Part shown: positions 3,346 to 64,000 of the stretch, piece after piece | Position numbering within the stretch: position 1 is the stretch's first letter | Layout: every line of letters starts with the position of its first letter | Sequence record: OQ561750 | DNA length: 64,000 bases | Strand: one strand, 5' to 3' | Source of the DNA: Escherichia phage LHE83 | Position numbers and translations under genes: made by a program | Notes under the pieces: generated by a model | What the model saw: only the letters and a program-made list of their open reading frames with translations | Told to the model about the DNA's origin: nothing | Databases searched by the model: none

Positions 3346-3915
3346 ATGAACATCGAACAAAAATGTCTTTATCAAGACCGAATCAATTCCAAATTCTCAA
3401 AACACGAACAGAATCTTTTAGAAAAATGTCTAGATGCTAAAAAGGACCCTAACTTCCATTACGACCTTGATAAGCTAGTTCGTAAGCATGTTACTTCAGC
3501 GGTTCCGGTAGAGCTTTATCGTGGGATTACCGCTATGGAACTTGAGCAACTTGAAGTTCTTTCTGTTGGGTGCCAGTGGTCTCCTGGCCGGGTTACTTCT
3601 TTTAGTACACAATACTCACAGGCTCGTCAGTTCGCAGGGGCATGGGAATATGGAACCAGAACCATTTTAAGTCTCAGGAATGCACCGTTCATTTTCGACT
3701 ACTATAACCATGCTATCGACCTTGTTCTTGCAGGGAATGTAGATGAGCTTGAAATAGATGAAACCCGTATAGACCTCTACGATATGGTCGAAACTGAATG
3801 TGAGTTCATGGTCTCCAGCCAATCACGATTTGAGATTGTGGAAATCGAAACTATCAAAAGGGACCCGTACGAAATCGAGTACAAAACAATTCATTTAAAA
3901 ATGTTGGATTTTTAG
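3346..3915 (+). CDS. modB: ADP-ribosyltransferase, ModB-like
   Basis: 189 aa; ART motif set R (LYRGI), S-x-S (SFS), E-x-E (ETECE); paralogue of next ORF; modB or modA identity by gene order only. Confidence 0.55.
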   Translation: MNIEQKCLYQDRINSKFSKHEQNLLEKCLDAKKDPNFHYDLDKLVRKHVTSAVPVELYRGITAMELEQLEVLSVGCQWSPGRVTSFSTQYSQARQFAGAWEYGTRTILSLRNAPFIFDYYNHAIDLVLAGNVDELEIDETRIDLYDMVETECEFMVSSQSRFEIVEIETIKRDPYEIEYKTIHLKMLDF

Positions 3916-3944
3916 TTTACAGGCAAGGAAGCTTGTGGTACTAT
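3915..3944 (+). promoter_or_regulatory. early promoter (GTTTAC, 18 bp, TACTAT, then CTATCAACT)
   Basis: -35 overlaps upstream stop codon; conserved downstream block. Confidence 0.5.
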
Positions 3945-3969
3945 CTTTCTATCAACTGAGGAGAATAAT

Positions 3970-4584
3970 ATGTTATATCCAAGCCATAAATTAGCAGAAT
4001 TTATCAACAACGCCAAATGCGATGATTTCCGTGAGAATACTCAGATAGAAATTGATGAGGTGTATTCTGATTTAGAACAGAGCACGCTCTGGCAGTGTAT
4101 GGAAAATAAACCAGATACTATCCAGGAAACTCTGAACAAAATTATTCGTAAGAACCTGACTTCTGCAGTGCCTGATAAGTTGTATCGCGGAATTTCTAAG
4201 AAGACTATGGCATATCTTGAATCTACGATGTGCGTAGGTGCTGTAATTGAATTCGACCGTGTGATGAGCTTCTCAAAAGATTTCAATGTAGCTCGTAACT
4301 TCGCATCTTATAACTTCTACGGCACATTTAATATCTTTTGTATTAATGATGCACCATTTGTGTACAATTATCAGGAAGAAATCTTTAAAATGTTATGTGC
4401 CGCGCCCCCTGAAGAGTTCCCAGGTGCATTTCCTGAATCTACCCGTGTAGCAAACTTACAATTAATCAATGATGAAGATGAGATGATGTTCCCTGCGGGA
4501 ACTACGCTGAGCGTAGACTCTATTGAGAGAAATCCTAAATGGAATAATTACACCATTTGGAATCTTTCCGTTCTTTCTTACTGA
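3970..4584 (+). CDS. modA: ADP-ribosyltransferase, ModA-like
   Basis: 204 aa; ART motifs R (LYRGI), SFS, E-x-E (EDEMM); paralogue of previous ORF. Confidence 0.55.
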   Translation: MLYPSHKLAEFINNAKCDDFRENTQIEIDEVYSDLEQSTLWQCMENKPDTIQETLNKIIRKNLTSAVPDKLYRGISKKTMAYLESTMCVGAVIEFDRVMSFSKDFNVARNFASYNFYGTFNIFCINDAPFVYNYQEEIFKMLCAAPPEEFPGAFPESTRVANLQLINDEDEMMFPAGTTLSVDSIERNPKWNNYTIWNLSVLSY

Positions 4585-54419: not shown

Positions 54420-54444
54420 GGGACTCTTCGGAGTCCCATTTTTG
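54420..54444 (+). terminator. intrinsic terminator (GGGACUC-UUCG-GAGUCCC then AUUUUUG)
   Basis: 7-bp stem, UUCG loop, T-run. Confidence 0.7.
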
Positions 54445-55831: not shown

Positions 55832-56044
55832 ATGTTTAAGAAATTGATTCAGAAATTATTAGGTACGGAAATGGTCGAAGTGACTTATCGTGTAACTGAT
55901 TTATCTCCTGTGCATCCACAAGATGAACCATATACTAAAACAATTAAAATGCTGAAATCTGACGGCGGATTATCTATTAAAGACCGTCTACCTGGTTATG
56001 GTCATTGGGCTGATGTAGAGATTATCAGTGTCAAAGATATTTAA
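55832..56044 (+). CDS. hypothetical protein (70 aa), paralogue of next ORF
   Basis: Shares LVEVTYRV.DLSP and IISVKD motifs with 56054-56266. Confidence 0.45.
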   Translation: MFKKLIQKLLGTEMVEVTYRVTDLSPVHPQDEPYTKTIKMLKSDGGLSIKDRLPGYGHWADVEIISVKDI

Positions 56045-56053
56045 GGAGTCTTC

Positions 56054-56266
56054 ATGATTAAGAAATTATTTAAAAAGCTGTTTGGCTTGGAACTGGTTGA
56101 AGTGACTTATCGTGTTATTGATTTATCACCGCCATATGCTTGCGATGAAGATGCTATTAAAACTGTTGTTATGCGAAAAACATATCGCGGGCAGTCAATT
56201 AAAGAAAGATTGCCAGACCATGGCATGTGGTATGCAACCAAGATTATCAGTGTCAAAGATGTCTGA
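56054..56266 (+). CDS. hypothetical protein (70 aa), paralogue of previous ORF
   Basis: Tandem duplicate. Confidence 0.45.
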   Translation: MIKKLFKKLFGLELVEVTYRVIDLSPPYACDEDAIKTVVMRKTYRGQSIKERLPDHGMWYATKIISVKDV

Positions 56267-56717
56267 GTTAGAAATCAGAAGTAATTTTCCGTGGCCATCG
56301 TGTGCATTAAGTAACTTTGCTAAATGGCCTTTCGTTATGGATGGTATCCAATTTGGAGGGCTCGAAGGATTCCTCCAAGGGTGTAAGGTGAGAAATCATG
56401 AACAACAAAAACGTATATTTGGGATGTCCGGTCTGGCCGCACAACAAACTGGAAGAGCTTATGCAAGAGCTGCGGACCGTGGGACGCTTTTCTGGCTTGG
56501 AATTCCCTTTTCAAGATACTCTACATCATGGAAAGAGTTGTATACAAATGCATATTTTGAAGCAGCGCTCCAAAACAAAGGATTCCGCGACGCATTACAA
56601 GCTACAAAGGGCAAAGTTTTAAAGCATTCGATGGCGAGCCACCTTACAGAATGTGATACAATACTAACTGAAAAAGAGTTTATCGACATCCTAAACAAAT
56701 TGAGAGATTTATTATGA
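56259..56717 (+). CDS. NADAR/YbiA-like (DUF1768) domain protein
   Basis: 152 aa; motifs LSNFA.WP, MDG..F, E.FLQ..K and A..GR, KH resemble E. coli YbiA / NADAR family as recalled; start overlaps upstream stop. Confidence 0.5.
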   Translation: MSELEIRSNFPWPSCALSNFAKWPFVMDGIQFGGLEGFLQGCKVRNHEQQKRIFGMSGLAAQQTGRAYARAADRGTLFWLGIPFSRYSTSWKELYTNAYFEAALQNKGFRDALQATKGKVLKHSMASHLTECDTILTEKEFIDILNKLRDLL

Positions 56718-57352
56718 AACCAGTTATCTTAACAGATATCGATGGAGTATGTTTAAGTTGGCAGTCCGGCTTGCCTTATTTCGCACAGAAATATAATTTG
56801 CCTTTAGAACATATTTTGAATATGATTCAGGACGAACGTTTCTTATCTCCTGGTGAGCTGTTTAATTGTGATAATGAATTAGGCGCTCGTTTAATCGAGA
56901 AGTACAATCAGTCAGATTTTATTCGTTATCTGTCTCCTTACATGGACGCATTAAAACATATCAACAAGCTCAAAAAAGACTTCGATTTTGTAGCCGTGAC
57001 TGCGCTAGGCGACTCAATTGATGCACTGCTGAATAGACAATTCAATTTGAATGCTTTGTTCCCTGGCGCATTCAAGGAGATTCTGATGTGTGGTCATTCA
57101 GAATCAAAAGAAGACCTCTTCATAAGAGCTAAAAATACGTACGGTAAACGTATTAAGTTTTATGTTGATGATTTGGCTCACCACTGTGATGCTGCATCTA
57201 ATGTTCTCATGGATATCCAAGTTTATTGGTTAGCTCGTGGTGAACGTGACTTTAAACCTAATTTAGCCGTAAAGGTTAATTCATGGGACGATATCGCAGC
57301 AATCGAATCCCTTCGTAATAATGCCGCAGTTGAATGGATTGCTCGAGGTTAA
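56714..57352 (+). CDS. HAD-superfamily phosphatase (5'(3')-deoxyribonucleotidase-like)
   Basis: 212 aa; N-terminal HAD motif I ILTDIDGV; later YVDD acidic motif. Confidence 0.5.
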   Translation: MKPVILTDIDGVCLSWQSGLPYFAQKYNLPLEHILNMIQDERFLSPGELFNCDNELGARLIEKYNQSDFIRYLSPYMDALKHINKLKKDFDFVAVTALGDSIDALLNRQFNLNALFPGAFKEILMCGHSESKEDLFIRAKNTYGKRIKFYVDDLAHHCDAASNVLMDIQVYWLARGERDFKPNLAVKVNSWDDIAAIESLRNNAAVEWIARG

Positions 57353-57353
57353 T

Positions 57354-57632
57354 ATGTTTGTAGTTCATACAATTTCAGACTATGGTCCTACCACTACAAT
57401 GGATTATGGTCATGTAAACCAGTTTATTCGTCATGTGAATCATGATTACTCATTTGATGTAAATCCGGCTAAAGACCATCCTGTTTGGCGCGAATGCGTC
57501 GAACAGGGATTCATTTATGTCCACTTTATGTCCAAGTTCAAATCTGATGGGCGAATGAGATTTGTGTTCTCTTATCATAAGCGATTAGACTTGCTTTTGG
57601 CTGATGTGGCTTATAATAGAATCCATGACTAA
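57354..57632 (+). CDS. hypothetical protein (92 aa)
   Basis: ATG with GAGGT SD after upstream stop. Confidence 0.4.
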   Translation: MFVVHTISDYGPTTTMDYGHVNQFIRHVNHDYSFDVNPAKDHPVWRECVEQGFIYVHFMSKFKSDGRMRFVFSYHKRLDLLLADVAYNRIHD

Positions 57633-57642
57633 TGAGGTGATT

Positions 57643-59166
57643 ATGATTTTAGATATTTTAAACGAAATTGCTGCTATCGATTCCACTAAAGCTAAAGAAG
57701 CCATTATTGCTCGTGAAAAGGACAATGAGCTTCTGAAACGTGTTTATCGTATGGCGTATACCCGTCGTTTGAACTACGGTATTAAAAAGTGGCCAGAACC
57801 TGGATTTACATCTCAATCCTTTGGTATGATTACTCTTGAAGACCTTCTTGATTTCGCTGAATTCACATTAGCCACACGTAAGATTACGGGTAATGCGGCT
57901 ATTGAAGAACTGGCTCAAATCATTGCTGATGCTAAGGCCCCGGATGCCGAGGTATTACGTCGTGTAATGATGCGCGACCTTGAATGTGGTGCATCGATTT
58001 CTATTGCTAACAAGGTTTGGAAAGGTTTAATCCCTGAACAACCGCAGATGTTGGCGAGTTCTTATGATGAAGCTTTGATTAAGAAAAATATTAAATGGCC
58101 AGCGTTTGCTCAATTAAAAGCTGATGGTGCTCGTTGTTTTGCCGAAGTTCGTAACGATGGTGTGACATTCCTTACTCGTGGTGGTAATGAATACCAAGGG
58201 CTTCATCTTTTAGCTGCTGAATTAATGGCGATGACCGAAGAAGCTCGTCAACGTCATCCTAATGGCGTTATGATTGATGGCGAATTAGTTTACCATACTC
58301 CTAAAGTTGAACCTAAAGCATCTAATGATTTGTTTAGTATGTTTGACGAGGAACTTCCTGAATTAAGTAAAGCCAAAGAATTCCAAACTGTCGCCGATCG
58401 TTCTACGTCAAATGGATTGGCTAATAAGGCTCTTCAAGGAACTATCACCCCATCTGAAGCCGCTGGTATGGTATTACAGGCATGGGATTATGTCCCACTG
58501 GATGTCGTGTATTCTGAAGGCAAAATTAAAGGTGATAAGTATGATGTACGCTTTACAGCCTTAGAACTTATGGTGGCTCATAATGTCGTATTGCATGGCA
58601 CAACGCGTGTTGAAGCTATCGAAAACCAGTGGGTTAATAATCTTGAAGAAGCTAAAGTCGTTTATAAGAAATATGTCGACCAAGGTCTGGAAGGTATTAT
58701 CCTTAAGAACATGGACTCCTACTGGGAAAACCGCCGTTCTAAGAATCTTATCAAGTTCAAAGAAGTAATCGATATTGCTTTAGAAGTGGTGGGTTATTAT
58801 GAACACTCGAAGGACCCTAACAAGCTAGGTGGCGTCGAGTTGGTATCACGTTGTCGTCGAATTACAAGCGACTGTGGTTCAGGCTTTAAAGATACCACCC
58901 ATAAGAAAGATAAATCAGGTAAAAAGGTATTGATTCCATTGGAAGACCGTCCTGATTTAGACCGTGAACTTCTTATGAAACAAGCTCGTGAAGGTAAGTT
59001 GATTGGACGTATTGCTGACTGTGAATGTAATGGTTGGGTTCATTCTAAAGGTCGTACTGATACTGTAGGTATTTTCCTTCCAATCATTAAAGGTTGGCGT
59101 TTCGATAAAACAGAAGCTGATACATTTGAAGATGTATTCGGTGATTGGTCTCAAACTGGTCTATAA
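57643..59166 (+). CDS. 30: ATP-dependent DNA ligase gp30
   Basis: 507 aa from ATG 57643 (GAGGTGA SD); adenylation motif KADGARC; colinear with T4 ligase as recalled. Confidence 0.9.
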   Translation: MILDILNEIAAIDSTKAKEAIIAREKDNELLKRVYRMAYTRRLNYGIKKWPEPGFTSQSFGMITLEDLLDFAEFTLATRKITGNAAIEELAQIIADAKAPDAEVLRRVMMRDLECGASISIANKVWKGLIPEQPQMLASSYDEALIKKNIKWPAFAQLKADGARCFAEVRNDGVTFLTRGGNEYQGLHLLAAELMAMTEEARQRHPNGVMIDGELVYHTPKVEPKASNDLFSMFDEELPELSKAKEFQTVADRSTSNGLANKALQGTITPSEAAGMVLQAWDYVPLDVVYSEGKIKGDKYDVRFTALELMVAHNVVLHGTTRVEAIENQWVNNLEEAKVVYKKYVDQGLEGIILKNMDSYWENRRSKNLIKFKEVIDIALEVVGYYEHSKDPNKLGGVELVSRCRRITSDCGSGFKDTTHKKDKSGKKVLIPLEDRPDLDRELLMKQAREGKLIGRIADCECNGWVHSKGRTDTVGIFLPIIKGWRFDKTEADTFEDVFGDWSQTGL

Positions 59167-59404: not shown

Positions 59405-61489
59405 ATGACCGAACAATTAAATGAAGTGTTTGAGTCCGAAGGCACACTGCCTACAGTAAACTTGAACCCAAAACTTAAAGTACCCCAGATTTGGAAGATT
59501 GGTGACGCAGAATCCCAATTAGTGGCGCGTATGGTATCCTACGCTTCTGAAGGTGATGCTATTAAACAGGTTAAGATGGGTGATAAATATGCCCACGTTA
59601 TCCTTATGAGCCTTTCAGCTAAAGGTTCGCCTGCCGAACTTAAAGGTGGCCTAGGCCCTACTCCCGTAGATGCGATTAATACTATTTTTGATATGGTTTA
59701 TGACCAAGTTAAAAAGCTTCGTATGGATGCCGTGATGTTCCGTTTCCCTACTAAGAAAATGAAAGGTCAAGGCCCTATCGTTCAACGGATTATCCAACGT
59801 TTGGTAGCACAGAAAACAGGTGGACGTTTTAAAGTAGTTCCGGCTATGTACCAATTTACCGGTAAACATACTTACATCCTGGTAGTTCGTAAACAAGCTG
59901 ATATAGAAGATATCAAAGGTATGCCTGGAATTAATGCTGAATTGTATACTAAGGTAGATTCTGATGTCGGTGAAGTTTATATTTCTAAAAAAGAAGGCGT
60001 GCAGGTTACTAAAGAAACTGCTATCGCCGGTAGTATTGCTAAGGTTGAAGAACGTCGCACTGATAAAATGGTTATAACCAAGACTAAGATTTCTCGACGT
60101 GCTATTGCAGCAAGTCAATCGTTAGAATCTTATCGTAATGAAAGTGAGCTGTTTAAGAAATATGAAGCTACTGCAGTAGATTTTAATAAACCGGCAACAG
60201 TTCCATTAATCCCTGAGGCCCAGGAAATGGTTACTAATAACAATTCTCCTGCGGCTAAAAATAAGGTTGCTAATATAGTGGCTGAAGGCACTGCTGAAGA
60301 ATTGCATTACGATTACAAATTGTTCCCACTTCACGGTATTGGCGAAATCCAAGAGAAAATTAAAGAGAAAATCCTTACGGCCATCAAAAACGAACCTTTG
60401 ACATCTGTTAAAGCCCTAGAAAAATATGCCTCTACTATTAATACCATTTTCGAAGAATACAAAGGCGAGTGGCTGGCTATTCATAACAGAACCCGTAAAG
60501 GCCAACCTGATGACCTTTGGAACGAATTGACAGAGGCCAAGTGGAAAGCGGCCAAGACCAAGTTCATTAAAAAACGCGTGTATAGTTTTGCTGGTGTAGG
60601 TGGCGGTATTATGGTCGATATTACTATTGCTCGTGAGGGTTCTAAATATACTCCATCACAAAAGCGTGGTATCAGAGAATATTGTGGTTCAGGATATACA
60701 GACATAAATAATCTTCTTTTAGGACGTTATAATCCTCAGAACTATGAGGTTATGAGCGAAAAAGATATCGAATCTGCAGTTAATAATTTGGATTCTGCTT
60801 TTGAAAATGGCGACCGTATACCAGAGGGCATCACAGTTTATCGTGCCCAGAGTATGACTGCTCCTATATACGAAGCACTAGTTAAAAATAAAGTGTTTTA
60901 TTTTAGAAATTTTGTATCCACTTCATTGACCCCTATAATTTTCGGACGTTTTGGTGTTACGCACGCTGGTATCGGTCTTTTAGAACCTGAAGTTCGCAAT
61001 GAATTGACAGTCGATAAAAATGAAGAAGGAATAACTATTAATCCTAATGAAATAAGAGCATATAAAGAAAATCCTGATTATGTTAAAGTTCAAATAGGAT
61101 GGGCTATTGATGGGGCCCATAAAGTTAATGTCGTATATCCAGGAAATCTCGGAATAGCAACTGAAGCCGAAGTTATTCTACCGCGTGGATTAATGGTCAA
61201 AGTTAATAAAATAACAGATGCTTCTAATAATGATGGAACAACATCTAGTAATACAAAACTCATTCAAGCTGAAGTTATGACAACAGATGAGCTTCAAGAA
61301 TCTGTGGTATATGATGGTGATGTACTAATGGAAACCGGCGAGTTGGTCGTATATCAAGATGACTTCGATACTTCCGAAAGCCCCTTATCTTTTGATTCAT
61401 TTGTTAAATCTACACGGTTTGATGTACTGCCTCTTTTGGCTTCATGCATAGACCTCTATGACATCCCAGAAAAATTCATCCAAGGGTAA
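59405..61489 (+). CDS. alt: Alt-type ADP-ribosyltransferase, copy 1
   Basis: 694 aa; N-terminal 250 aa colinear with T4 Alt as recalled (VTK..AIA.SIA...R.D..VI.K.KISRRAIA.SQSLES); C-terminal ART elements VYRAQ, FVSTSL, EAEVILPRG. Confidence 0.8.
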   Translation: MTEQLNEVFESEGTLPTVNLNPKLKVPQIWKIGDAESQLVARMVSYASEGDAIKQVKMGDKYAHVILMSLSAKGSPAELKGGLGPTPVDAINTIFDMVYDQVKKLRMDAVMFRFPTKKMKGQGPIVQRIIQRLVAQKTGGRFKVVPAMYQFTGKHTYILVVRKQADIEDIKGMPGINAELYTKVDSDVGEVYISKKEGVQVTKETAIAGSIAKVEERRTDKMVITKTKISRRAIAASQSLESYRNESELFKKYEATAVDFNKPATVPLIPEAQEMVTNNNSPAAKNKVANIVAEGTAEELHYDYKLFPLHGIGEIQEKIKEKILTAIKNEPLTSVKALEKYASTINTIFEEYKGEWLAIHNRTRKGQPDDLWNELTEAKWKAAKTKFIKKRVYSFAGVGGGIMVDITIAREGSKYTPSQKRGIREYCGSGYTDINNLLLGRYNPQNYEVMSEKDIESAVNNLDSAFENGDRIPEGITVYRAQSMTAPIYEALVKNKVFYFRNFVSTSLTPIIFGRFGVTHAGIGLLEPEVRNELTVDKNEEGITINPNEIRAYKENPDYVKVQIGWAIDGAHKVNVVYPGNLGIATEAEVILPRGLMVKVNKITDASNNDGTTSSNTKLIQAEVMTTDELQESVVYDGDVLMETGELVVYQDDFDTSESPLSFDSFVKSTRFDVLPLLASCIDLYDIPEKFIQG

Positions 61490-61492
61490 ATA

Positions 61493-63538
61493 ATGGAAAA
61501 TTTAAATGAGGTTTTTGATAGTGATTCCGCTAAAAACTATCCAGTAACAAATCTTAAACCGGGTTCCGGTATTCCACAGATTTTCTCTATCCAAGCACCA
61601 GGTAATGATAATCTGGTTGCTCGTATGGTATCTTATGCGTCTCAAGGAGACGCTATTAAAATGGTTAAGCCGGGCGACAAATATGTTCATGTTATTTTGA
61701 TGAGTTTGTCTGCTAAGGGTAGCCCAGCCGAGTTGAAAGGTGGGTTAGGTTCTGACCCACTTGGTACGCTGAATACCATTTTTGATACTGTATACGAACA
61801 AGTAAACAAACTTAAAATGGATGCAGTTCTTTTCCGGTTCCCTACCAAGAAAATGAAAGGTAAGGGTCCTACTGTTCAACGTGTATTGGCACGTTTGGCG
61901 ATGGCTCGTACTGGCGGCAAGTTTAAAGTTGTCGATGATATGTATCAATTTACAGGCAAACATACATACGTTTTACTGGTCCGTAAACAAGCTAATATTG
62001 AGGACATAAAAGGTATGCCTGAAATTGATGCAGACCTTTACACTAAGGTTGAGTCTAAAGTTGGTGAGGTTTATGTATCCAAGAAAACAGGCCAATCGGT
62101 AACCAAAATAGAAGCACTATCTGCTAGTATAGCGGCAGTCGAAGAAAAACGTATGGATAAGGCTGTTATTACTACTACCAAGATTTCTAGGCGTGCTGTA
62201 GCCGCAGCCCAGTATTCTCCTCGAGATGAAGTTCCGGAAGGTTGGAATGAGATTGATGCAGAGGCATCAAAATTTAGTGCCCCGGCAACAGCGGAACTTA
62301 TCGATGATTATGAAGAACTAGAAATTTTTATTCAACCTTCTGAAACGAATACTATGGAGCGTATGCGCGCGGCAGATATGGCTATGCGAGCAAACAGTGT
62401 TTGGAAAGAAGAAATTCGAGTCGAAGACTCTGACCCAATTTTTAACCGTATGCATCGTGAACTTAAACGTGCTCCTGTCGGCAGTATGAAGCAGATGCAG
62501 ATTTTTGCCGAATCATGTGCAGAGGTTCTTAACCTTCGCAAAGCTGCATTTATTGAAAGAAAAATGAATGAGGCTCCTCCTAATATGGATGCGGCAGAAT
62601 ATGCAGCAGAGCTTTGGGAACAAGAGTATGCTCAACGTATAAGTGCTGCTGTTACCGACTTTGCTAATGAAGCGTCAGAAAGTGTTATGCATTTTACAGC
62701 CAGTTATAGCGATAATCGATTTGAGTATGAGCAGCGTGAGGCTATTTCTTCTTATTGTGGCCAATATTATACCGATGTTAATAATTATTTGTTGGGTAAT
62801 TATTATGAAGAGGATGCAGAATTTATTGATAGTTATCGTGTAATTGAAGTAATTAATGATATGGATGCAGCATTTGAAATTGGCCATAAATTGCCACCTG
62901 ATATTACACTTTGGCGTGGTCAATATTTAAATGTTAACACTTTTGATAAAATCAAACACTCAAAATTGTTTTATTTCAGGAACTATGTATCAACGTCCCT
63001 TAAGCCGATTATCTTTGGCGGCTGGGTATCAAACGTCGCAATGGCCGCAGTTCATCAGGACTATCGCGCTGGGACATCTTTCCAAGGCGATAATGAAATT
63101 GTTCTTCCAAGTATGCTGACGAGTTCCGAAAATACAATGATGAACATCGGTTGGAAAATTTCCGGTGCAGACTCTATTAACGTAATTGTGCCAGGTAAAT
63201 TGTCAGGTTCTCCAACAGAACAAGAGGTTATTCTTCCACGTGGAACTACTGTTAAGATTACTAAAATTACAGATGCCTCATATAAAGGAAACTACAACAC
63301 CAAATTACTGGAAGCTGATATCCAGACCACAGACCAACTAGCAGAAAATGCAGTTATCTACGATGGTGATGCATTGATGGAAACCGGCGAATTGGTTGTT
63401 TACCAAGGCGTAGAAACAGAGACCGACAACCCTGTGTCTTTTGATTCATTCGTCAAATCGACCAAGGTGGATATAATGCCTATTTTAGCTTCATGTATTA
63501 ATTTTGACGAAACCCCAGAAAAATTCACCCAAGGGTAA
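61493..63538 (+). CDS. Alt-type ADP-ribosyltransferase, copy 2
   Basis: 681 aa; conserved Alt N-terminus; ART elements LWRGQ, YVSTSL, EQEVILPRG; central region diverged from copy 1. Confidence 0.8.
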   Translation: MENLNEVFDSDSAKNYPVTNLKPGSGIPQIFSIQAPGNDNLVARMVSYASQGDAIKMVKPGDKYVHVILMSLSAKGSPAELKGGLGSDPLGTLNTIFDTVYEQVNKLKMDAVLFRFPTKKMKGKGPTVQRVLARLAMARTGGKFKVVDDMYQFTGKHTYVLLVRKQANIEDIKGMPEIDADLYTKVESKVGEVYVSKKTGQSVTKIEALSASIAAVEEKRMDKAVITTTKISRRAVAAAQYSPRDEVPEGWNEIDAEASKFSAPATAELIDDYEELEIFIQPSETNTMERMRAADMAMRANSVWKEEIRVEDSDPIFNRMHRELKRAPVGSMKQMQIFAESCAEVLNLRKAAFIERKMNEAPPNMDAAEYAAELWEQEYAQRISAAVTDFANEASESVMHFTASYSDNRFEYEQREAISSYCGQYYTDVNNYLLGNYYEEDAEFIDSYRVIEVINDMDAAFEIGHKLPPDITLWRGQYLNVNTFDKIKHSKLFYFRNYVSTSLKPIIFGGWVSNVAMAAVHQDYRAGTSFQGDNEIVLPSMLTSSENTMMNIGWKISGADSINVIVPGKLSGSPTEQEVILPRGTTVKITKITDASYKGNYNTKLLEADIQTTDQLAENAVIYDGDALMETGELVVYQGVETETDNPVSFDSFVKSTKVDIMPILASCINFDETPEKFTQG

Positions 63539-63541
63539 ATA

Positions 63542-64000
63542 ATGGAAAATTTAAACGAAGTTTTTGATAAAAGCGATAAAAAAAATTACCCAGTAACAAA
63601 TCTTAAACCTGGCTCAGGCGTACCGCAGATTTTTGCGGTACATGCTCCTGGTAATGACAATTTAGTAGCACGTATGGTATCTTATGCGTCTGAAGGCGAC
63701 GCTATTAAGATGGTTAAAAATGGTGATAAGTACGTCCATGTTATCTTAATGAGTTTATCTGCTAAAGGCGCTCCGGCAGAACTCAAGGGTGGTTTGGGTA
63801 CCGATCCACTCGGTACACTGAACACCATTTTCGATACCATATATGAACAAATAAACAAACTTAAAATGGACGCGGTTTTGTTCCGTTTCCCTACTAAGAA
63901 AATGAAAGGTAAAGGTCCCACCGTTCAGCGCGTATTAGCTCGCTTGGCTATGGCTCGTACCGGTGGTAAGTTTAAAGTTGTTGACGACATGTTCCAATTC
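63542..64000 (+). CDS. Alt-type ADP-ribosyltransferase, copy 3 (3' end outside window)
   Basis: 153 codons open to window end; N-terminus most similar to copy 2; same junction sequence TAAATAATGGAAAATTTAAA. Confidence 0.75.
   Translation, partial: MENLNEVFDKSDKKNYPVTNLKPGSGVPQIFAVHAPGNDNLVARMVSYASEGDAIKMVKNGDKYVHVILMSLSAKGAPAELKGGLGTDPLGTLNTIFDTIYEQINKLKMDAVLFRFPTKKMKGKGPTVQRVLARLAMARTGGKFKVVDDMFQF

Follow-up and report, generated by a model that had tools for sequence, protein, structure and literature searches.

The product of T4 gene 30.3 was named AdfN (anti-DarT factor NADAR) in 2024-25 (Johannesman et al., Nat Commun 2025; PMC11825919) and is, by experiment, a DNA ADP-ribosylglycohydrolase that acts against DarTG1 (PMC11825919, PMC11125620). 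NADAR domains owe their name to a genomic link with the metabolism of NAD and ADP-ribose, and the NADAR identity of gp30.3 had been predicted bioinformatically before the experiments, a prediction credited to de Souza and Aravind (PMC11543638). T4 AdfN strips ADP-ribose from DNA in vitro and is both necessary and sufficient against DarTG1, with T4 growth on DarTG1 hosts requiring it (PMC11257639, PMC11825919); T4 carrying a transposon in adfN is lost on these hosts specifically (bioRxiv 10.1101/2025.11.20.689424). In vitro, gp30.3 is active on guanosine-ADPr and inactive on thymidine-ADPr (PMC11125620), and it leaves cytidine-ADPr in place (PMC12945103). T4 AdfN does not rescue uninfected cells from DarT1 toxicity and gives weak rescue to non-T-even phages, including T5 and Bas25 (PMC11257639, PMC11825919), and Johannesman et al. 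(2025) considered it likely that T-even phages encode another factor for full AdfN activity (PMC11825919). The substitutions E36A and K43A each abolish T4 AdfN function, and the frameshifted RB69 allele, which has lost the last 15 residues, is inactive (PMC11257639). The role of the NADAR lysine in phosphate coordination has been described (PMC11543638), and the residue at the last strand separates the subfamilies, being His in phage NADARs, Glu in the YbiA family, and Asp in the DarG1/BC4488 family (PMC11125620, PMC11543638).

We analyzed a 64,000-nucleotide stretch of DNA from Escherichia phage LHE83 (sequence record OQ561750; hereafter the window), in which a 152-codon ORF with an ATG start and a stop codon lies upstream of the ligase gene (Table 1). 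The ORF list also contained a longer, GTG-started reading of this frame (56112..56717); the ATG at 56259 is the start annotated in T4, and the alignment with T4 gp30.3 begins at residue 1. That alignment is gapless between proteins of equal length, with 130 of 152 residues identical (86%; E 4e-102) and the remaining 22 differing between T4 AdfN and the window allele. The Pfam family PF08010 (Phage_30_3) matched the product at E 3.6e-64 and 215.1 bits, above its gathering score (cut-off, 36 bits), and residues 12-150 covered profile positions 2-138 of 138; phrog_652 matched as well. Judged by these scores, the match to PF08010 and to T4 gp30.3 lies far beyond chance, and the ORF is, on sequence grounds, the ortholog of T4 gene 30.3 (AdfN). 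The gene order 30.4, 30.3, 30.2, 30.1, 30 is common to the window and T4. The suggestion that the ORF belongs to the T4 30.x backbone therefore stands, whereas its description as functionally unassigned has been overtaken by the published anti-DarTG1 function of the T4 ortholog.

Table 1. Features of the adfN region, in window coordinates.
Feature	Position	Strand	Description
rIII	53740..53988		
Gene 30.4, first copy	55832..56044		Matches T4 gp30.4
Gene 30.4, second copy, 70 aa	56054..56266	+	57% identical to first copy; matches T4 gp30.4
adfN (gene 30.3 ortholog)	56259..56717	+	152-aa phage-type NADAR, predicted DNA guanine ADP-ribosylglycohydrolase
E36, codon GAA, catalytic glutamate	56364..56366	+	Corresponds to T4 AdfN E36, PnNADAR E43, and E. 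coli C7 DarG1 E88; aligns with YbiA E48
K43, codon AAG, essential phosphate-coordinating lysine	56385..56387	+	Corresponds to T4 AdfN K43, PnNADAR K50, and C7 K95; aligns with YbiA K55
H123, codon CAT, last-beta-strand histidine	56625..56627	+	Marks phage (gp30.3-type) NADARs
C-terminal helix, residues 138-152, intact	56670..56714	+	From the model and the full-length T4 alignment
Gene 30.2 ortholog, 212-aa HAD-superfamily phosphatase (DxD type)	56714..57352	+	5'(3')-deoxyribonucleotidase-like fold
Gene 30.1 ortholog (DUF3045)	57354..57632	+	PF11243, E 5.9e-16; tblastn to T4 gp30.1
Gene 30, ATP-dependent DNA ligase	57643..59166	+	62% identical to T4 gp30 over 487 aa
Three tandem alt paralogs after ligase	59405..61489, 61493..63538, 63542..>64000		

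An earlier note on this DNA had called the ORF NADAR/YbiA-like on the basis of a series of motifs, all of which are present in the translation: LSNFAKWP (residues 17-24), MDGIQF (27-32), EGFLQGCK (36-43), GRAYA (65-69), and ALQATKGKVLKH (112-123). YbiA was the sole sequence match in the PDB, at E 1.2 with the single protein and E 0.01 with a family profile, with the Glu and Lys aligned. The single-protein links to YbiA in the PDB, Pfam, and NCBIfam fell below threshold, so the search was extended to a profile of the family, to scans of each member, and to the fold. The adfN product alone did not match the Pfam NADAR profile PF08719 at E<=1, and in the per-member scan, 23 of the 79 gp30.3 family members matched it, the best at 1.5e-7; what places the window protein in the superfamily is thus its fold, its conserved residues, and transitive matches. 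The AlphaFold2 model of the product (pLDDT 95.1, pTM 0.89) shows the YbiA fold, with core helices flanked by small sheets, and in a Foldseek search of the PDB it matched YbiA (2b3w), the Phytophthora enzyme PnNADAR with ADP-ribose (8bau), and the NADAR (DarG1) of Geobacter lovleyi (8bat) at probability >=0.98, every further match standing at <=0.02. YbiA 2b3w was the best structural match (TM 0.67, E 7e-5). The earlier NADAR/YbiA-like call is borne out by a fold that matches NADARs only, by the aligned Glu and Lys, and by the PF08719 matches within the family; within the NADARs, the adfN product belongs to the phage His-type branch rather than to the YbiA subfamily.

In an alignment of the 79 family members, with identity down to 35%, E36, K43, and H123 were invariant. 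The first two carry the same numbering as in T4 AdfN and align with the YbiA pair. In the model, H123 directly follows a predicted strand (residues 120-122), and helix 138-151 was modeled at a pLDDT of about 95-98, with adfN running the full 152 aa. The SNFA...E..F/LQ..K motif block of the product aligns with that of E. coli YbiA (2b3w) at 19% overall identity, the position of H123 being taken by Glu in YbiA. The role of YbiA is a housekeeping one, connected with riboflavin intermediates, and unlike the T4 NADAR it removes C-ADPr (PMC12945103). The DarG1 NADARs (BC4488 family; G. lovleyi 8bat, E. coli C7) share with AdfN the fold and the Glu and Lys pair, and DarG1 removes ADP-ribose from the N2 of guanine in DNA, the reaction predicted for the window protein. 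DarG1 differs in having a last-strand Asp where the window protein has His, and an N-terminal extension that the window protein lacks (total length 219 aa vs 152 aa). DarG1 is encoded beside DarT1, whereas the window adfN is flanked by 30.4 and 30.2, with no DarT present and hence without the adjacent darT1 of a DarG1 locus. DarG1 also neutralizes DarT1 in uninfected cells, which T4 AdfN cannot do (PMC11257639, PMC11543638, PMC11825919). The closest system is T4 AdfN itself, which has the same 152 aa, E36/K43/H123, intact C-terminal helix, and position between 30.4 and 30.2; T4 is a Tequatrovirus, the window phage is of the Dhakavirus type, and the upstream 30.4 is duplicated in the window, unlike in T4.

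Orthology, fold, the three conserved catalytic residues, and the intact C-terminus are established for the window allele. The ORF is very probably the adfN of a Dhakavirus-type T4-like phage, predicted to encode a stand-alone 152-aa anti-DarT1 DNA ADP-ribosylglycohydrolase. We infer that the window allele, at 86% identity, would do in its own phage what T4 AdfN does. The DarT1 toxin of the bacterial DarTG1 toxin-antitoxin defense ADP-ribosylates guanine in phage DNA and so blocks its replication, and the adfN product, like T4 AdfN, would hydrolyze the N-glycosidic bond that joins ADP-ribose to the guanine N2 amino group in DNA, yielding free ADP-ribose and replicable phage DNA. Because it would reverse the DarT1 mark and restore replicable DNA, the protein would amount to a phage-borne orphan antitoxin. 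Within the active site, E36 is expected to set the position of the distal ribose and K43 that of the phosphates; H123 stands where cellular NADARs have Glu or Asp. The proposal that the gene counters host DarT-type ADP-ribosylation of DNA agrees with the demonstrated anti-DarTG1 activity of the T4 ortholog (PMC11825919, PMC11125620).

Between rIII and the ligase gene lie ten small ORFs, which correspond as orthologs to T4 genes 30.9 through 30.1, gene 30.4 having two copies; the stop of the second 30.4 copy overlaps the adfN start by 8 nt, and ligase gene 30 is the last gene of the tightly packed same-strand run containing adfN. A promoter scan of 53.5-59.5 kb found fewer promoter-like sites than in shuffles, the sole convincing terminator-like hairpin in that interval lies at 54420-54437, upstream of 30.8, and the two scans gave no sign there of adfN as a separate transcription unit. 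An overlapping ORF, 30.3' (56398..56622), was considered as part of the mechanism and set aside, because it is retained in close relatives alone and is the less conserved of the two frames. The window also contains an ortholog of the gp56 dCTPase, in line with the report that AdfN works best during T-even infection. The window starts inside gene 61, which leaves the slot of adfA (T4 61.2) outside it; WG01 seems to lack a complete adfA.

The gene directly downstream, whose product begins with MKPVILTDIDGV, had been described as a HAD-family ORF, an assignment confirmed by motifs and fold alike. All four HAD motifs (DxD, T/S, K, DD) are kept, with D8, D10, K132, D152, and D153 invariant in 51 homologs and T96 nearly so (at least 90% conserved), and the AlphaFold2 model (pLDDT 94.8) shows a Rossmann-like HAD core with a cap. 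Over residues 1-191 of T4 gp30.2 the window protein is 74% identical, lacking the C-terminal tail of roughly 70 aa found in T4, and it matched phrog_420 at E 1.5e-70. Foldseek returned 142 PDB matches at E<=1e-3; the 50 listed were all HAD-superfamily enzymes, and the matches include the cdN structures 2jao, 2i7d, and 4yih. The closest known relatives are cdN/mdN (NT5C; 2jao, 2i7d), which share the HAD Rossmann-like core, helical cap, and DxD motif I, match structurally at a low rmsd of 4.4-4.9 A over about 205-215 columns, and are 15-18% identical. The Pfam profile for NT5C (PF06941) scored 13.4 bits against the window protein, below its gathering score of 24.8, and was matched at E<=0.1 by 6 of the 51 homologs; the resemblance to NT5C seen in the model thus appears structural, with a profile score short of family membership.

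The proximity of the two genes raises the idea that AdfN and a translationally coupled gp30.2 constitute a two-enzyme module, in which gp30.2 potentiates AdfN in vivo or processes its product. The stop codon of adfN and the start codon of 30.2 share an ATGA (56714-56717), and 30.2 lies directly 3' of 30.3 in every close T4/JS98-type locus whose sequence continues beyond 30.3, as well as directly 3' of the gp30.3 homolog in one locus at 44% identity and 0.7-1.2 kb downstream in five more distant loci. The literature offers some encouragement, given the further T-even factor deemed likely by Johannesman et al. (2025; PMC11825919), the weak effect of AdfN for T5 and Bas25, and its failure against DarT1 in uninfected E. 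coli, which carries no phage 30.2 gene (PMC11257639, PMC11825919); 30.2 is found mainly among T4-like phages. When HMMs for gp30.3 and gp30.2 were run over 80 IMG/VR loci with a gp30.3 homolog, however, 57 had no 30.2 homolog within 5 kb. The 66 distant gp30.3 loci had no other conserved neighbor, since clustering of same-strand ORFs within 2.5 kb found nothing common to more than 8 of them. Adjacency is confined to T4-type synteny, and an obligate partnership of AdfN and gp30.2 was rejected for this reason. Genome-level co-occurrence of 30.2 and 30.3, with similar counts (1437 vs 1510 phage records) and one genus profile for both, reflects shared T4-like ancestry, a confounder that makes these counts uninformative. 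ADP-ribose does not contain a phosphomonoester, which means that a HAD phosphatase would first need a pyrophosphatase to cleave it. By itself, AdfN shows activity in vitro (PMC11257639, PMC11125620), and the T4 transposon screen on DarTG1 reported adfN with no mention of 30.2 (bioRxiv 10.1101/2025.11.20.689424). The earlier suggestion that the HAD enzyme acts on the product released by AdfN accordingly found no support in the gene neighborhoods of the 80 loci or in that screen. We regard such a module as quite improbable, and we hold equally slim the prospect that gp30.2 is the T-even factor proposed by Johannesman et al. (2025) and that T4-like phages carry a two-gene anti-DarT1 module. Most likely, the gp30.2 ortholog is an independent backbone gene outside the AdfN mechanism.

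Even less can be said for the view that the NADAR reverses or edits marks made by the phage's own Alt, ModA, or ModB instead of countering a host toxin, which we consider highly improbable. The setting invites it, with three alt paralogs on the adfN strand 2.7 kb downstream of that gene and a pair of mod-like ORFs at 3346..4584, at least five Alt/Mod paralogs in all. The targets of T4 Alt, ModA, and ModB are, however, arginine residues of proteins. The tested NADARs, T4 gp30.3 included, all act on guanine-linked ADP-ribose, and neither T-ADPr nor C-ADPr is removed by gp30.3 (PMC11125620, PMC12945103). The naming of NADAR for its genomic association with NAD and ADP-ribose metabolism (PMC11543638) speaks in favor of this view, and the specificity of the adfN phenotype to DarTG1 (PMC11257639, bioRxiv 10.1101/2025.11.20.689424) speaks against it. 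Homologs of gp30.3 occur in many contigs without a conserved neighbor, nothing links AdfN to Alt/Mod, and the conjecture of an ADP-ribose-processing partner of the phage ADP-ribosyltransferases found no support. The remotest prospect is that the protein works as a housekeeping N-glycosidase of the YbiA type and clears reactive intermediates of the riboflavin pathway, the function assigned to E. coli YbiA and TIGR02464: the best structural match and sole PDB sequence match to YbiA, together with a faint TIGR02464 match (E 0.093), would favor it, but that match reaches 13 bits vs a cut-off of 73.7, the YbiA-defining last-strand Glu is replaced by an invariant His in the gp30.3 family, and for the T4 ortholog both a DNA substrate and a defense phenotype have been demonstrated (PMC11257639, PMC11125620).

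Because the activity of T4 gp30.3 has already been demonstrated, reading the window ORF as a NADAR and a counter-defense gene is correct but already known; one more T4-like genome is hereby annotated with a known anti-defense gene, and nothing conceptually new is added. The window adfN allele is intact, unlike that of RB69, and would predict DarTG1 resistance of this phage, a predicted trait that may be useful in choosing phages against DarTG1-carrying hosts.

Our analysis identified the 152-aa ORF as the ortholog of T4 gene 30.3, since renamed adfN. The protein matched T4 gp30.3 at 130 of 152 residues in a gapless alignment of equal length (E 4e-102), hit Pfam PF08010 (Phage_30_3; 215 bits, E 3.6e-64), and was assigned to phrog_652 in PHROGs. 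When searched with T4 proteins (tblastn), the window ORFs paired one-to-one with 31, rIII, 30.9, 30.8, 30.7, 30.6, 30.5, 30.4 (twice), 30.3, 30.2, 30.1, 30, alt.1, and alt (three times). The 1.9-kb region shared 99.4–99.7% identity with Escherichia phages WG01 (itself classified as Straboviridae, Tevenvirinae, Dhakavirus) and PSD2002 and with Salmonella phage ABTNLS3, and 94–99% with QL01, Bp7, and IME08. Gene 30.4 is single in T4, whereas the window carries two copies; in most close relatives, including QL01, MX01, IME281, and Bp7, the alignment was split in two and covered only 89% of the 1.9-kb query, so that a stretch of about 200 nt, possibly corresponding to one 30.4 copy, may be missing or divergent there. 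The sole convincing transcription signal in a scan of 53.5–59.5 kb was a strong terminator-like hairpin.

Features of the adfN region and of the ADP-ribosyltransferase genes in the window
Feature	Coordinates	Strand	Remarks
ModA/ModB-like ORFs, two adjacent	3346..3915 and 3970..4584	+	32–40% identity to T4 ModA and ModB
Terminator-like hairpin	54420..54437	+	GGGACTC-TTCG-GAGTCCC then T run; directly 3' of 30.9 ortholog
Gene 30.4, tandem paralogs	55832..56044 and 56054..56266	+	70 aa each; 57% mutual identity
adfN (gene 30.3 ortholog)	56259..56717	+	ATG start, 152 aa
E36 codon	56364-56366	+	Equivalent of superfamily Glu; invariant in the homolog alignment
K43 codon	56385-56387	+	Equivalent of superfamily Lys; invariant in the homolog alignment
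Internal ORF	56398..56622	+	+1 frame within adfN; counterpart of T4-annotated 30.3' (74 aa)
H123 codon	56625-56627	+	Phage-type His; invariant in the homolog alignment
Gene 30.2 ortholog	56714..57352	+	212 aa; start overlaps adfN stop
alt paralogs, three in tandem	59405..61489, 61493..63538, 63542..64000	+	ADP-ribosyltransferases; third continues past window end

In a mechanical ORF list, the adfN frame opens further upstream at GTG 56112; the ATG is preferred because the alignment with T4 gp30.3 begins at the first residue of the ATG-started product and because an ORF opening here overlaps the end of the upstream gene by 8 nt, as in T4. The adfN stop overlaps the next start codon as ATGA (56714-56717). 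The internal ORF shares 60% identity with T4 30.3', lower than the 86% of the main frame. Of 66 distant homologs, just 2 keep an ATG ORF of at least 70 aa in this frame. The internal ORF seems not to be a conserved gene but to arise as a by-product of the main frame.

The earlier note had recognized a NADAR/YbiA-like protein from five motifs, all of which lie in this ORF (residues 17-24, 27-32, 36-43, 65-69, and 112-123), and the family-level and structural data bear out that identity. With the window protein as query, E. coli YbiA (2b3w) was the single match in a PDB sequence search (E 1.2), the YbiA family model TIGR02464 scored 13 bits (E 0.093; cut-off 73.7), and a Pfam search gave no match to NADAR, so that by sequence alone this one protein is only weakly linked to the family. 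Adding family information makes the link appear solid: the profile of an alignment of 79 gp30.3-family homologs (identities down to 35%) again found YbiA as the sole PDB match (E 0.01), pairing the block mEGFLqslK with YbiA SEHYFQAQK, and 23 of the 79 members individually matched Pfam NADAR PF08719 (best 1.5e-7). The AlphaFold2 model built from this alignment was confident (pLDDT 95.1, pTM 0.89), and Foldseek against the PDB returned three credible matches, namely YbiA 2b3w (E 7e-5, TM 0.67), the Phytophthora nicotianae NADAR with ADP-ribose (8bau), and the Geobacter lovleyi NADAR (DarG1; 8bat), with all others at a probability of at most 0.02. No profile search placed the ORF in an unrelated family, and the conserved catalytic residues are present.

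These residues also define the subfamily. Schuller et al. (2023) showed that guanine de-ADP-ribosylation requires a Glu (E43 in PnNADAR, E88 in E. coli C7) and a Lys (K50 and K95, respectively), both conserved superfamily-wide, and that a third residue, in the last strand, is acidic in the YbiA family (Glu) and in DarT1-associated NADARs (Asp) but replaced by His in phage NADARs (PMC11543638); the same definition was repeated in Toxins 2024, where the phage group was named gp30.3 proteins (PMC11125620). The window protein carries E36, K43, and H123, with the same 7-residue Glu-to-Lys spacing as other NADARs, which places it in the His-type branch of phage NADARs; it is neither a YbiA-subfamily member nor a DarG1. 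This type is not strictly confined to phages, because a PF08010, His-bearing NADAR lies in the bacterial chromosome of a Bacteroides sp. MAG (GCA_023663525.1; L084 6001-6444, 995-kb contig), flanked by a predicted tRNA synthetase (tRNA-synt_1 domains) and an asparaginase on one side and a glycoside hydrolase on the other, with no phage genes visible within 6 kb. Homologs of about 38–40% identity also occur on very large, jumbo-phage-like contigs, among ENA metagenome contigs (L085-L087, up to 308 kb) and in IMG/VR (L039, L049, L055, L060, L069, and L070; 308–501 kb). The neighbors in L085-L087 are unrelated; a NUDIX hydrolase lies a few kb off, as does a Thg1-like gene in the case of L085 and L087. 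In two metagenomic loci (L056 4013-4156, L072 4246-4365), the full gene is preceded at about 0.8 kb by another, short gp30.3-like fragment, which may be a duplication remnant.

The neighboring ORF, which begins MKPVILTDIDGV, was confirmed as a HAD enzyme, as the earlier note described it. Its product shares 74% identity with T4 gp30.2 (278 aa; L001:4475-5311) over residues 1-191 of the latter and lacks the Pro/Asn/Tyr-rich C-terminal tail (about 70–85 aa) of the T4 protein; homologs are either about 200–230 or about 260–340 aa long, and the tail appears to be an optional module. No Pfam domain exceeded threshold (NT5C, 13.4 bits; cut-off 24.8), phrog_420 matched at E 1.5e-70, and among 51 homologs PF00702 was matched by 10 and NT5C by 6. 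D8, D10, K132, D152, and D153 are invariant in these homologs and T96 nearly so; these residues make up HAD motifs I to IV, and the DxD form is typical of phosphatases, not dehalogenases. The AlphaFold2 model (pLDDT 94.8) had 142 PDB matches at E<=1e-3, the best 50 of which were all HAD enzymes, and among the matches listed those of lowest rmsd include the cytosolic 5'(3')-deoxyribonucleotidases 2jao, 2i7d, and 4yih.

Since ADP-ribose has no phosphomonoester, a HAD phosphatase could act on it only after pyrophosphatase cleavage. Johannesman et al. considered it likely that full AdfN activity depends on a further factor encoded by T-even phages (PMC11825919), and gp30.2 is translationally coupled to adfN; that it is this factor nevertheless strikes us as very improbable, as the neighborhood and published data weaken the reading. 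Among 80 IMG/VR loci with gp30.3 homologs, searched with HMMs of both families, 30.2 directly follows 30.3 in every close T4/JS98-type locus (>=85% identity) whose sequence continues beyond the latter gene, as well as in one locus of 44% identity (L015), and lies 0.7–1.2 kb downstream in five more, but in 57 of the 80, nearly all of about 40% identity, the search to 5 kb revealed no 30.2 homolog. When all same-strand neighbors were clustered, no family recurred in over 8 of the 66 distant loci, where gp30.3-type NADARs are genuinely stand-alone genes. Although 30.2 and 30.3 each occur in about 1,450–1,500 phage records with the same genus profile, common T4-like ancestry explains this co-occurrence. 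AdfN needs no partner in vitro (PMC11257639, PMC11125620), and the text of a T4 transposon screen never mentions 30.2 (bioRxiv 10.1101/2025.11.20.689424).

The earlier note also suggested that the NADAR could be a partner of the phage's own ADP-ribosyltransferases. Such genes are indeed present in the window: three alt paralogs in tandem (47%, 38%, and 33% identical to T4 Alt, in order), where T4 has one full alt and the remnants alt.-1 and alt.-2, as well as two mod-like ORFs. T4 Alt/Mod-type enzymes modify protein. A link to AdfN is not supported, as neighbor clustering of distant loci found no comparative linkage of gp30.3 homologs to ADP-ribosyltransferase genes and T4 gp30.3 acts on guanine-linked ADP-ribose in nucleic acid, de-ADP-ribosylating guanosine but neither thymidine (PMC11125620) nor cytidine (PMC12945103).

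The proposed counter-defense against DarT-type DNA ADP-ribosylation is correct and already published, on the evidence of T4 AdfN. Johannesman et al. mapped T-even resistance to the toxin-antitoxin system DarTG1 to gene 30.3, which they renamed adfN (anti-DarT factor NADAR), and found T4 adfN both necessary and sufficient against DarTG1; its function was abolished by E36A and by K43A, and purified AdfN removes ADP-ribose from DarT1-modified DNA (PMC11257639, bioRxiv 2024; PMC11825919, Nat Commun 2025;16:1598). In the transposon screen, adfN insertions dropped out specifically on DarTG1 hosts (bioRxiv 10.1101/2025.11.20.689424). RB69 is DarTG1-sensitive because a frameshift leaves its gp30.3 15 residues short, without the last helix (PMC11257639, PMC11825919), whereas the window allele is full length, with helix 138-151 confidently modeled, and is predicted to be active. 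The window feature is a new copy of the already characterized adfN, and the gene after it encodes the conserved HAD phosphatase gp30.2. The window begins inside primase gene 61, leaving the slot of adfA (T4 61.2) outside it. In WG01, the closest complete relative (NC_031928.1 16000-20500), this slot holds a 146-aa ORF; because that ORF matches no part of T4 gp61.2 except the last 14 residues of the T4 protein, this phage lineage may rely on AdfN alone against DarTG1.
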